Below are positions 2,042-3,725 of a DNA stretch of 64,000 bases, piece by piece (position 1 is the stretch's first letter; the number at the start of each line of letters is the position of its first letter). Position numbers and translations under genes: made by a program. Below the pieces are notes generated by a model that saw nothing but the letters and a program-made list of their open reading frames with translations, ran no database searches and had not been told where the DNA came from. The stretch is from Escherichia phage vB_EcoM_Kelasse: the sequence record MW749001.1; one strand, written 5' to 3'.

Positions 2042-2329
2042 TTACCATTTATGATAATACATATTTACGATGCATTCAAGACCCAAAGGATTCTTGAAAA
2101 TATCATATTCAAGAGGACCTTTTTCTGTTTCAATAAAGAAATCAAAATTTACTGTATTAAATTTACGGTCTTCCTTCACTAATTTAACTTGAGAAGATGA
2201 ACGGTCAACATAAACCTTTTCAACTTCAAAACATGTTAAAACGCCATAATCATCAATCAAGGCTTTAGCCGCGTCTTGATCATATTTATATCCATTTTCA
2301 ATGGATGATACTTTAGCATAAAGAATCAT
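2042..2329 (-). CDS. Hypothetical protein (95 aa)
   Basis: Complete ORF in the variable block between the tRNA array and 57B; no motif recognised. Confidence 0.5.
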   Translation of the reverse strand: MILYAKVSSIENGYKYDQDAAKALIDDYGVLTCFEVEKVYVDRSSSQVKLVKEDRKFNTVNFDFFIETEKGPLEYDIFKNPLGLECIVNMYYHKW

Positions 2330-2331
2330 TA

Positions 2332-2712
2332 TCAGCCTTCATCAACAATAGTATGAGTGTGGGCATTTACAATTTGCCACCAATCAAAGCGATTAGAACC
2401 ATACATCGGTTTGTTTTCATTTTCTTTGATAATATCACGGAGTTCATCTTCGGTAGCGGCTTTCGCGATTAAATCAGCATATCCACCACGAGGATAATAA
2501 TTATCACCTGCAAAAAGTAAAAAGTTTGGTTTAATATTATTAAACTCTTCAAGAGTAATAACTGTTCCACCAGGTTGAGCAATATCTACATAACTATATC
2601 CTAATTTTTGAGCAGCATCTACTGCTTCAAGCAGGGTATCATGAGCCCATCCAATTTGGCAATCTGGCTTTTCAGATGGATTAGCCTGATAATCCGCGTA
2701 CACTTTATACAT
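2332..2712 (-). CDS. Hypothetical protein (about 126 aa; ORF extends to 2751 but the likely start is the internal ATG)
   Basis: Internal ATG (MYKVYADYQ...) preceded by AAGGTGA 6 nt upstream and lying just after the stop of the upstream gene; the longer ORF would overlap that gene by 38 nt. Confidence 0.5.
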   Translation of the reverse strand: MYKVYADYQANPSEKPDCQIGWAHDTLLEAVDAAQKLGYSYVDIAQPGGTVITLEEFNNIKPNFLLFAGDNYYPRGGYADLIAKAATEDELRDIIKENENKPMYGSNRFDWWQIVNAHTHTIVDEG

Positions 2713-2713
2713 T

Positions 2714-2899
2714 CTATTCACCTTTAGAAATTTTATCCATAACGATAGCAATTAAACCAATTAAAAATGCTACTACAAGTGAAAAAACATTTTCTGCTGT
2801 AGTCAATAATCCGCATATAAATCCAACAAACATTGAAAAACTAAAAGCGGAAGCAGAAATTGCAATAGCAACATTTCGAATTAATTCACAACGTTTCAT
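2714..2899 (-). CDS. Small predicted membrane protein (61 aa)
   Basis: ATG with GGAGAA Shine-Dalgarno; two hydrophobic segments (AIAISASAFSFSMFVGFICGLL and VFSLVVAFLIGLIAIV); own early promoter at 2928-2957. Confidence 0.5.
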   Translation of the reverse strand: MKRCELIRNVAIAISASAFSFSMFVGFICGLLTTAENVFSLVVAFLIGLIAIVMDKISKGE

Positions 2900-2927
2900 T
2901 TTATTCTCCTCGGTAGTTGATAGGGTA

Positions 2928-2957
2928 ATAGTATCACTACCCTATCTAAAAGTAAAC
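2928..2957 (-). promoter_or_regulatory. Early (sigma70-type) promoter GTTTAC-N18-TACTAT
   Basis: Minus strand GTTTAC (plus 2952-2957), 18-nt spacer, TACTAT (plus 2928-2933). The 22-bp core gatagggtaatagtatcactac at 2919-2940 is repeated exactly at 3219-3240. Confidence 0.55.
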
Positions 2958-3191
2958 TTATTTTTTACGAAAAATTGATTTATATTTATCAGCCCATTTC
3001 TCAATGACTTTTGCCGGGCCATAGATAACAAAGTAATCGCCAAACTCTTCACCACCGAGTTGACCGAAATCATCTAATGCATCACGAAGAACTCCATGAG
3101 GCATTTCACCCATTTTATCTTTCTTGCCAGTGTAAATAAACTCAACTTTTACATCAGCAGTTTCAGCAATAAATTCTTGATACGTTTTCAT
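2958..3191 (-). CDS. Internal protein with N-terminal capsid targeting sequence (IP-family, packaged in the head)
   Basis: The ORF-track start is an upstream GTG; the ATG giving MKTYQEFIAE has a GGAGAA Shine-Dalgarno 5 nt upstream. MKTYQEFIAE is the T4 internal-protein capsid targeting sequence, with the gp21 cleavage motif IAE. Small charged mature product. Confidence 0.65.
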   Translation of the reverse strand: MKTYQEFIAETADVKVEFIYTGKKDKMGEMPHGVLRDALDDFGQLGGEEFGDYFVIYGPAKVIEKWADKYKSIFRKK

Positions 3192-3227
3192 TTTGTTCTC
3201 CAATTTCACATTTGTTTTGATAGGGTA

Positions 3228-3257
3228 ATAGTATCACTACTAAAACCCCATGTAAAC
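3228..3257 (-). promoter_or_regulatory. Early promoter GTTTAC-N18-TACTAT (second copy)
   Basis: Minus strand GTTTAC (plus 3252-3257), 18-nt spacer, TACTAT (plus 3228-3233); upstream of the internal protein gene. Confidence 0.55.
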
Positions 3258-3269
3258 AACTTTGTGAAA

Positions 3270-3725
3270 TTATTTTAAATCATCTGCCCAATCAAGTTTA
3301 AGAGGCTCTTTATATTCACGATCTAATACGACCGGAATTTGTACATCACCGCTAAATGATAAGGGTCCAACATTATAAGACAATGTTATATGCGGTGTGT
3401 AATCATCAAAATCATGTGTAGCACCTAGTGACCGCGCATACATGTGTCGACAGCGCAGATATTCAGAATCTAGTACAAGTACAAGAGTAGATCCATCTTG
3501 TGTTTTCCATACTTCTAAATGTCCAGAAGAAGCTACTTCAAAACTTCCGCTTGATGGAACATACGGAACATTTACTCTCGAATAACATATAGTCGAATGA
3601 ATTTTTTCTCTAGGAACTGGATTAGGAACACGTAAAGAGCGCTGGAGTTCTTCCAGCGCATCAAGTGTTAATTCTGAAAACTTAGCTGCTACATAAAGAC
3701 CCGTTGAAAAGTCTTTAAATTCCAT
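3270..3725 (-). CDS. 57B: 57B / Acb1-like anti-CBASS cyclic-nucleotide phosphodiesterase (2H phosphoesterase fold)
   Basis: 151 aa in the T4 57B position next to 57A. Two H-x-T/S motifs (KIHSTI and TPHITL) typical of 2H phosphoesterases. T4 57B is the described Acb1; equivalence here is by position, size and motif. Confidence 0.6.

Follow-up and report, generated by a model that had tools for sequence, protein, structure and literature searches.

The likely T-even IP1 locus of a T4-like coliphage: acb1, ip6 and the trna.4-trna.3-trna.2 operon

We analyzed a five-gene region within a 64-kb stretch of phage DNA (hereafter, the window), and concluded that this region is very probably the T-even IP1 locus, an early, non-essential accessory region made up of three units: acb1 (gene 57B) coupled to 57A, an ip6 cassette and a trna.4-trna.3-trna.2 operon (Table 1). 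Many Tequatrovirus records were 98% identical to the window in DNA sequence, which identifies the source phage, at the level of sequence, as a Tequatrovirus, a T4-like coliphage, and the gene order of the locus matched that of T4. An earlier note, made from the letters of the window, had listed five open reading frames here and placed them at the hypervariable internal-protein locus of T-even phages; all five were present, all on the minus strand, and the position was right. An Rfam scan of positions 1-4200 returned nothing but tRNAs. The locus is real but ordinary and already known: its architecture was described in 1994 and Acb1 in 2022, a preprint of 2025 reported an McrBC inhibitor of the Ip6 type, and little is added to these here.

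Table 1. Features of the locus, with positions in the window
Feature	Position	Strand	Description
57B = acb1	3270..3725	-	151 aa
ip6 promoter element	3204..3269	-	predicted early promoter with overlapping hairpin
ip6	2958..3191	-	77 aa, begins MKTYQEFIAE
trna.4 operon promoter element	2917..2957	-	predicted early promoter with overlapping hairpin
trna.4	2714..2899	-	61 aa, two predicted transmembrane helices
trna.3	2332..2712	-	126 aa from the ATG that agrees with homologues
trna.2	2042..2329	-	95 aa
tRNA-Gln	1871-1944		beyond trna.2, after a 97-nt spacer

57B matched the Pfam Acb1 profile (PF23474) along the entire profile (positions 1-144 of 144), with E=3.3e-60 and a score of 202 bits where the curated cut-off is 27, and the Acb1 structure 7t26 in the PDB matched 57B with E=1e-61. 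T4 57B, with which 150 of the 151 residues were identical (99%), has been shown to be Acb1, and its catalytic residues have been defined as H44, T46, H113 and T115 (Hobbs et al. 2022, PMC9117128). In the 151-aa form found here, the HxT/HxT tetrad was intact: H43, T45, H112 and T114 aligned with these four residues and likewise to 7t26. The two H-x-T/S motifs reported in the earlier note are thus present, as H43-S-T45 and H112-I-T114; its description of the product as Acb1-like named the right protein and was understated, given the 99% identity to the biochemically characterized T4 enzyme. By homology, 57B is Acb1 itself, the anti-CBASS 2H phosphoesterase, and from its identity to the assayed enzyme we infer that its product would cleave the cyclic oligonucleotide second messengers of CBASS by means of the HxT/HxT acid-base site. 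The start of 57B overlaps the stop of 57A, and 57B lacks its own promoter repeat; because of this overlap, 57B is expected to share a transcript with genes 1 and 57A, and its translation is probably coupled to that of 57A. Public records still label 57B 'RNA ligase' or 'hypothetical protein'.

The 77-aa product matched phrog_8111 ('internal virion protein') over its full length (E=3.9e-51) and was 87% identical to VR7 'ip6', 82% to the T6 protein and 78% to GiZh 'ipVI'. On these similarities it belongs to the known Ip6 family of internal proteins. Its leader, MKTYQEFIAE followed by T, is of the capsid-targeting type that ends in a prohead-protease site (I/L-x-E), as the earlier note had proposed from the first residues; the role of this targeting sequence has been described (PMC3012670). 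The leader is all that Ip6 shares with T4 IPI, and the pattern MK-T-Y/F-Q/K-E-F-I-x-E was kept in 49 open reading frames of the slot between 57B and trna.4, which fall into 13 families with unrelated mature parts. The 10-residue leader would direct Ip6 into the prohead core, where the prohead protease should remove it after I-A-E to leave a mature protein of 67 aa; the trimmed protein would then be packaged in the head and injected with the DNA. A PDB sequence search with Ip6 gave only Dyp-peroxidase noise (E=0.07).

Once injected, the protein most likely neutralizes McrBC, a modification-dependent restriction enzyme of type IV, before phage gene expression begins. Bas37_0260 is an injected McrBC inhibitor whose deletion makes phage Bas37 sensitive to McrBC (HIDEN-SEQ preprint 10.1101/2025.11.20.689424), and Ip6 was 83% identical to it, full length, without gaps and at the same genomic position. 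This identity suggests that Ip6 probably inhibits McrBC as well. All three internal proteins of T4 likewise inhibit type IV restriction; each of Ip1, Ip2 and Ip3 blocks a single GmrSD variant and does not protect against the targets of the other two (PMC12373910). Since they are so strictly specific for one enzyme, the target of the present Ip6 allele could differ. It is accordingly conceivable, if somewhat unlikely, that this allele is an injected inhibitor of another type IV enzyme (a GmrSD variant, for example), with its specificity set by a divergent C-terminal patch. The 13 residues that distinguish Ip6 from Bas37_0260 all lie within residues 41-70, and the corresponding DNA is 75% identical in nucleotides 127-234, compared with 97.6% in nucleotides 1-126. 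Moreover, two Ip6 alleles segregate among phages, with about 37 records at least 90% identical to that of the window and about 149 at 80-90%. However, the first 40 residues of the two proteins are identical and their gapless similarity runs through the whole protein, which argues against such a change of target.

The three small genes downstream of ip6, which the earlier note had listed as unknowns in an accessory cassette, are neither novel nor cassette-variable: they proved to be T4 trna.2, trna.3 and trna.4. Trna.4 (phrog_1692; 790 phage records) was identical to its T4 counterpart at 61 of 61 residues, and Trna.2 (phrog_2023; 803 phage records) was 94% identical. Trna.3 was 55% identical to T4 Trna.3 overall, with roughly 85% in the C-terminal half and about 35-40% in the N-terminal half; the N-terminal half is thus polymorphic, and the C-terminal module, of about 65 aa, is conserved and recurs widely in unrelated phages, where it makes up proteins by itself. 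Each of the three genes occurs in about 760-800 phage records, compared with 250 for Ip6, and they are fixed anchors in the 37 related loci that we compared. The intergenic gaps are 1 nt (trna.4/trna.3) and 2 nt (trna.3/trna.2), and the three genes form one operon behind a single predicted promoter, conserved from T4. No terminator-like site was found on the minus strand between 1900 and 4600, including the spacer that separates trna.2 from tRNA-Gln, and transcription of the operon, which would start at the second copy of the promoter, probably reads through into the tRNA array.

As the earlier note had observed, these three genes carry no recognizable motif. Sequence and fold searches led to no functional assignment: scans with Pfam, NCBIfam and PADLOC yielded nothing beyond sub-threshold noise (DUF5092, E=0.047; AbiEi, E=0.052; TusC, E=0.046), PDB sequence searches with Trna.2 or Trna.3 returned nothing below E=0.4, and Foldseek searches against viral models retrieved uncharacterized proteins only; the AF2 model of Trna.2 was poor (pLDDT 58). 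The two-helix membrane protein of that note was recovered as Trna.4, in which hydropathy indicated two hydrophobic segments, spanning approximately residues 9-32 and 37-54. The genes trna.2-4 are non-essential, trna.4 being so in both T4 and Bas37. A DRT1 pull-down showed enrichment of T4 Trna.2, and only two T4 proteins, Trna.2 among them, co-purify with active DRT1 (PMC13275509). This co-purification, together with the domain make-up of Trna.3 and the nature of Trna.4 as a small membrane protein, is the reason to consider that the conserved operon could be a counter-defence or host-takeover module; separately, the patch at residues 41-70 could retarget Ip6 to another type IV restriction enzyme. 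Jointly, these two proposals are unlikely.

Two repeated elements, one upstream of ip6 and one upstream of trna.4, would drive early transcription. As described in the earlier note, an identical 22-bp core occurs at 2919-2940 and 3219-3240 and is associated with GTTTAC-N18-TACTAT (2928-2957 and 3228-3257). These were the only two copies of the core in the 64 kb, even when 3 mismatches were allowed, and a chance origin was rejected (0 expected in shuffles). In the ip6 element, the -35 hexamer GTTTAC (3252-3257) is separated by an 18-nt spacer from an extended -10, TGATACTAT, that contains TACTAT (3228-3233); an outer inverted repeat (TTTCACA...TGTGAAA) surrounds the hairpin, the predicted RNA fold has an energy of -26 kcal/mol (z=-5.3), and transcription is predicted to start at about 3221. 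In the trna.4 element, whose 41 nt are 80% identical to the ip6 copy, the -35 GTTTAC (2952-2957) abuts the ip6 stop codon and the -10 TACTAT lies at 2928-2933; its hairpin, GATAGGGTA...TACCCTATC, occupies 2919-2946 (predicted RNA fold, -16.4 kcal/mol; z=-3.5), and the predicted transcription start of the operon is at about 2921. The inverted repeat spans the -10, as 9 bp of perfect match in DNA and 12 pairs in RNA. With respect to late promoters (TATAAATA), none was present directly upstream of ip6, and the nearest on the coding strand were inside gene 1 (4323-4330) and inside trna.2.

Judged by their sequences, both elements are T4 early promoters with an overlapping hairpin, of predicted activity. 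It is distinctly unlikely that they serve mainly as hairpins for RNA 3'-end formation or stability, or purely as recombination hot-spots, with the promoter-like hexamers unused. In favour of such a role, the hairpins fold strongly (-16 to -26 kcal/mol, with z as low as -5.3) and, since they overlap the -10, a transcript from the promoter itself would lack the complete hairpin, which RNA reading through from upstream would contain; moreover, Arbiol et al. proposed that such elements mediate shuffling (PMC2839356). However, the hexamers, their spacing of 17/18 nt and the extended -10, whose TG is present in the elements, fit the T4/PST early promoter consensus, TTTACW-N17-TAYWAT (PMC4122927). 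GTTTAC-N17-19-TAYWAT matched 4 times in the 64 kb, compared with 0.3 expected (more than 10-fold enrichment), and two of the four matches are in this locus. The promoter features were also kept at all junctions, including those with differing stems, and a terminator role is doubtful because no U-tract follows the stems. Promoter and hairpin or recombination roles are, in addition, not mutually exclusive.

In T4, SholemSchwarzbard and GiZh, the element lay upstream of ip genes and marked all ip junctions, and in the window ip6 is flanked by it on both sides. The promoter-flanked arrangement that the earlier note had invoked for this locus therefore holds around ip6, in the form of repeated early-promoter/hairpin elements; such promoters with overlapping hairpins at ip genes were outlined by Repoila et al. 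(1994), as summarized in PMC2839356 and PMC12373910. The title of that note had also placed each of the genes behind such a promoter, which does not agree with the two repeats present, the gaps of 1 and 2 nt around trna.3 and the overlap of 57B with 57A.

When the locus was compared with those of T4 and five other annotated phages, ip6 was located between 57B and trna.4, the site of one of the two IP loci, and across the 37 related loci only this slot varied (82-1666 bp): it holds 0-4 internal-protein genes, from 13 unrelated families, between conserved anchors. The hypervariability for which the earlier note had singled out this locus thus applies to the slot and not to trna.2-4, which stay fixed. 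SholemSchwarzbard, GiZh, Bas37 and Bas42 carry ip5 and ip6, and the source phage and Bas39 carry ip6 alone, so that the ip5 cassette of close relatives is absent here. We suggest that ip6 is a single exchangeable internal-protein cassette with its own T4 early promoter, and that the repeats supply short stretches of homology (about 20 nt, and a further 17-22 nt) through which ip cassettes may be gained, lost or swapped between co-infecting T-even phages. Such exchange would fall within the shared segments TTTCACAAAGTTGTTTACA and GTGATACTATTACC, and would explain why only the 57B-trna.4 slot varies. The single-base pattern at the junction, GTTTACAT abutting GGGG, fits a crossover within the repeat and could also be ordinary substitution. 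The view that the region is instead a set of five accessory cassettes independent of one another, each led by a copy of the repeated early promoter and three being novel, variable candidates for anti-defence functions, is highly improbable and already contradicted by the gene spacing and conservation data: the non-essentiality of trna.2-4, the association of Trna.2 with the defence protein DRT1 and the polymorphism of Trna.3 would be compatible with it, but the promoter repeats number two only, trna.4, trna.3 and trna.2 are 1-2 nt apart, these genes are present in T4 itself (Trna.4 with 100% identity) and in hundreds of other records, and in the 37 loci they behave as anchors and not as cassettes.

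The use of these results is a clean annotation: 57B should be recorded as acb1, the 77-aa gene as ip6 and the small genes as trna.2-4, and for ip6 the annotation of a probable type IV restriction inhibitor is worth carrying.

The individual components closely resemble known counterparts. T4 Acb1 has the same catalytic tetrad, genomic position and coupling to 57A as the present 57B, and differs from it by one conservative substitution (S/A, residue 98 of the protein in the window); the annotated start here is one codon shorter. Bas37_0260 (Escherichia phage KarlGJung, MZ501089) is, like Ip6, a 77-aa protein with the same leader, encoded directly upstream of trna.4, and the two loci have an identical 58-nt intergenic promoter before trna.4; the 13 substitutions limited to residues 41-70 are what sets it apart. 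T4 trna.2, trna.3 and trna.4 (NP_049746-8) are orthologues with the order and spacing found here, except that the N-terminal half of the present Trna.3 represents a different allele.

The elements can also be compared with the PeSLs (promoter-early stem-loops) of RB49/phi1 and other T4-like phages (Arbiol 2010; Comeau 2014), which likewise combine an early promoter with a stem-loop; they border variable genes and were proposed to mediate modular shuffling (Arbiol 2010, PMC2839356). The promoter part of the present elements fits the PST/T4 consensus cited above. In contrast to the RB49 PeSL, the IP-associated elements have promoters of the T4 type and not the sigma-70 type, and their stems are AT-richer, without polyG/polyC; in addition, the stem here overlaps the -10 element, whereas that of a PeSL follows the promoter. 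An RB49-type PeSL (a near-perfect sigma-70 promoter and then a G(n)-loop-C(n) stem) was accordingly rejected for the present elements, which have a GTTTAC/TACTAT promoter with the stem GATAGGGTA/TACCCTATC over the -10, and Arbiol et al. regarded the T-even IP-associated elements as analogues, not homologues, of the RB49 PeSLs (PMC2839356).

The closest known system is the T-even IP1 locus. The T4 ipI region (Repoila, Tetart, Bouet & Krisch 1994, EMBO J 13:4181, as summarized in PMC2839356 and PMC12373910) likewise lies between 57B and trna.4; in this system, the ip leader of 10-11 residues is conserved, ip genes are flanked on both sides by an early promoter/inverted-repeat element of about 40-70 bp, and the number and identity of the ip genes vary between phages. 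The locus in the window shows no difference in kind from this system: it carries ip6 alone, where ipI is found in T4 and ip5 together with ip6 in several close relatives.

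The source phage is a Tequatrovirus, a T4-like coliphage, and a sequence search with positions 1900-4800 of the window matched 909 phage records; Escherichia phages vB_Eco_EH2 and SholemSchwarzbard are 98% identical to this stretch along its entire length. All genes considered here lie on the minus strand in an order identical to that of T4 (57A, 57B, ipI, trna.4, trna.3, trna.2, tRNA-Gln), with ip6 in the window at the place of ipI. The spacing is that of an operon: the start codon of 57B overlaps the stop of 57A, and gaps of only 1 and 2 nt precede trna.3 and trna.2, each of which has a Shine-Dalgarno sequence. 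The coordinates and motifs reported in an earlier note were all correct. Its title placed each gene behind a repeated promoter, whereas only two copies exist, before the 77-aa and 61-aa genes; the 126-aa and 95-aa genes instead directly follow their upstream neighbours.

Features of the locus; positions are those of the window unless Bas37 (Escherichia phage KarlGJung, MZ501089) is named
Feature	Position	Strand	Remarks
gene 1, dNMP kinase	3967-4680	-	first in transcription order
57A	3725-3967	-	
57B	3270-3725	-	then 78-nt spacer
ip6 (77 aa)	2958-3191	-	then 58-nt spacer
trna.4 (61 aa)	2714-2899	-	
trna.3 (126 aa)	2332-2712	-	
trna.2 (95 aa)	2042-2329	-	then 97-nt spacer
tRNA array	930-1944	-	11 genes: Arg, His, Asn, Tyr, CAU-anticodon 'Met', Thr, Ser, Pro, Gly, Leu, Gln
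tRNA-Arg	930-1005	-	
tRNA-His/tRNA-Asn gap	1086-1199		114 nt
116-aa ORF	561-911	-	phrog_3355, E=6e-54
rnaD	445-561		87% identical to T4
rnaC	300-438		98% identical to T4
Hairpin element, ip6 copy	3204-3269	-	66 nt
Early-promoter pattern	59999-60027	-	
Early-promoter pattern	63454-63483	-	
TATAAATA in gene 1	4323-4330	-	
TATAAATA in trna.2	2283-2290	-	
bas37_0261 (Ip5)	2364-2621		in Bas37
bas37_0262 (57B/Acb1)	2695-3153		in Bas37

The window was set against six annotated phages and against 36 IMG/VR loci retrieved with the 57B protein, and we examined the slot between 57B and trna.4 in the 37 loci where a trna.4 homologue accompanies 57B. The flanking genes stayed in place as conserved anchors; the slot varied from 82 to 1666 bp and contained 0 to 4 ORFs bearing the leader, the N-terminal capsid-targeting sequence of internal proteins (MKTYQEFIAE in Ip6). 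The 49 slot ORFs fell into 13 families with the leader as their sole common feature, and Ip6 was found in 11 of the 37 loci. In the window and in Bas39, ip6 is the only ip gene of the slot; SholemSchwarzbard, GiZh, Bas37 and Bas42 have ip5 in addition to ip6, and T4 has ipI. At the junction, the spacer in the window matches two SholemSchwarzbard spacers in turn, the 57B-ip5 one as far as GTTTACAT and the ip5-ip6 one from GGGG on; this fits loss or gain of the ip5 cassette via crossover within the repeat, of which a single base is no proof. Some T4-like genomes (IMG/VR loci L011 and L012) have an empty slot, with 82-83 bp from 57B to trna.4 and no ip gene; another locus (L023) holds four leader-bearing ORFs in 1666 bp, together with one more ORF whose leader is a variant, MNIKTYNEF.

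The hypervariable cassette locus proposed in the note thus holds for the slot, and does not extend to the three small genes, which the note had listed as unknown members of the accessory cassette. The 95-aa protein is T4 Trna.2 (94% identity), the 61-aa protein T4 Trna.4 (61/61) and the 126-aa protein T4 Trna.3 (55% overall), found in 803, 790 and 761 phage records, respectively, from phages of Escherichia, Shigella, Klebsiella, Salmonella and Yersinia. These counts are three times that of Ip6; trna.2-4 belong to the conserved portion of the locus and are not cassettes. The C-terminal half of Trna.3 is about 85% identical to T4, the N-terminal half is a different allele, and identities among phage records are bimodal; Trna.3 is a two-part mosaic whose polymorphic N-terminal half falls into two or more allele classes. 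Uncharacterised proteins of 60-85 aa in Staphylococcus, Erwinia and Klebsiella phages consist of the conserved C-terminal module alone (about 65 aa, NFLLFAGDNYYPxGGYxDL...FDWWQIVNA), with a weak match in a Brevundimonas phage. Two hydrophobic segments in the hydropathy profile of Trna.4 are consistent with a two-helix membrane protein. Transposon libraries of T4 and Bas37 show all three genes to be non-essential. The sole functional hint we found comes from a pull-down with active DRT1, which enriched two phage proteins, T4 Trna.2 and Inh, a result its authors did not follow up (PMC13275509).

The 77-aa product belongs to a family of internal proteins, Ip6, in line with the note: phrog_8111 'internal virion protein' matched it at full length (E=3.9e-51), its VR7 homologue (87% identity) is annotated ip6 and its GiZh orthologue ipVI, and the T6 homologue is 82% identical. 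It occurs in 250 phage records, and shares only the leader with T4 IPI. In Bas37, the trna.4 orthologue is immediately preceded by bas37_0260 (234 nt), whose product is reported as a McrBC inhibitor (annotation table, preprint 10.1101/2025.11.20.689424); this 77-aa product aligns to Ip6 without gaps at 83% identity, with all 13 amino-acid differences within residues 41-70. The genes differ by 13 non-synonymous and 9 synonymous codons and are 97.6% identical over nt 1-126 and 75% over nt 127-234, which makes ip6 a mosaic with respect to bas37_0260. Two discrete alleles of patch 41-70 segregate among phages, and this patch could be a specificity-determining region. The two alleles might differ in specificity, a point that, like the function of trna.2-4, is not particular to the window. 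Given that T4 Ip1, Ip2 and Ip3 are each a specific inhibitor of a different GmrSD type IV enzyme (2025; PMC12373910), the general function of Ip6 as an injected anti-restriction protein seems well founded; McrBC is the probable target of the window's allele, but with such specificity the target could be another enzyme.

By established T4 biology, the leader, whose role has been described (PMC3012670), would direct Ip6 to the prohead core and be cleaved after I-A-E; the mature protein, predicted at 67 aa and about 7.7 kDa, would enter with the injected DNA and block a type IV restriction enzyme. The late-promoter consensus TATAAATA was not found on the coding strand directly upstream of ip6; on that strand it lies within gene 1 and within trna.2. 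From the gene 1 site, 57A, 57B and ip6 could be transcribed late, as the packaging of Ip6 into proheads would require. Supplementary file 8 gives one HIDEN-SEQ comparison in which insertions in bas37_0261 and bas37_0262 were significantly depleted (log2FC -2.09 and -1.56, respectively) and those in bas37_0260 were enriched; the depletion suggests that Ip5 also has a host-specific role.

The 57B protein is covered over its whole length by Pfam Acb1 (E=3.3e-60) and also matches 7t26, a crystal structure of Acb1 (E=1e-61). Acb1 activity was discovered in T4 57B, with the catalytic tetrad H44/T46/H113/T115 (PMC9117128). Since 150 of 151 residues are identical to T4 57B and H43/T45/H112/T114 occupy the tetrad positions, 'Acb1-like' understates the relationship, and the protein is Acb1 itself, which, made early, would destroy CBASS signals. 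Many GenBank records still label 57B 'RNA ligase' or 'hypothetical protein'.

The tRNA array comprises 11 genes, compared with 8 in T4, and its CAU-anticodon 'Met' tRNA is probably Ile2. A gap separates tRNA-His from tRNA-Asn. Neither segB nor another homing endonuclease was found in this array, whereas SholemSchwarzbard, Bas37 and Bas42 carry endonuclease insertions; unlike the window, Bas37 lacks tRNA-Gln. In T4, rnaD adjoins tRNA-Arg and segB comes after tRNA-Arg, whereas the window has the 116-aa ORF between rnaD and tRNA-Arg. Because no terminator-like site was found between the trna.4 promoter and the array, this promoter may also feed the tRNA genes. In classical studies of T4, the promoters of the tRNA genes lie about 1 kb upstream of tRNA-Gln.

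Both identical 22-bp cores described in the note are present, and each copy of the repeat carries GTTTAC-N18-TACTAT, with TACTAT preceded by TG as in an extended -10 element. Exactly two copies of the core occur in 64 kb with 3 mismatches allowed (0 expected by chance), and the repeat family, D3, is 80% identical over 41 nt. In the window, 4 sites (0.3 expected) match the degenerate T4 early-promoter pattern GTTTAC-N17-19-TAYWAT, two of which are these repeats. The other two have a -10 region of GTGATATTAT or ATGATATTAT and presumably belong to a further block of early genes at the far window end. On the coding strand, the spacers read TTTCACAAAGTTGTTTACATGGGGTTTTAGTAGTGATACTATTACCCTATCAAAAC... 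ahead of ip6 and, immediately past the ip6 stop codon, GTTTACTTTTAGATAGGGTAGTGATACTATTACCCTATCAAC... ahead of trna.4. Their common framework of TTTCACAAAGTTGTTTACA, a variable stem arm, GTGATACTATTACC, a second stem arm and ATCAA recurs at both ip junctions of T4 and at all three of SholemSchwarzbard and GiZh. Where the left arm is altered, the right arm is altered to match (GATGAGGTA/TACCTCATC in T4 and GATAGGGTA/TACCCTATC in the window). The trna.4-copy hairpin is predicted at -16.4 kcal/mol (z=-3.5), and the nested ip6-copy hairpin at -26 kcal/mol (z=-5.3). The latter is enclosed by an extra outer 7-bp inverted repeat, TTTCACA/TGTGAAA, also present in SholemSchwarzbard; the GiZh sequence differs there.

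The interpretation in the note was largely right, with novelty and cassette structure overstated, as all features of the locus had already been described. The repeats correspond to an arrangement for which Repoila et al. (1994) are credited: IP genes are flanked by about 70 bp comprising a T4 early promoter and an overlapping inverted repeat, with shuffling as the proposed role. Arbiol et al. (PMC2839356) described the IP-flanking elements as PeSL-like analogues, and the promoter consensus of Comeau et al. (PMC4122927) for the T4/PST pair, TTTACW-N17-TAYWAT, matches the window's repeats.
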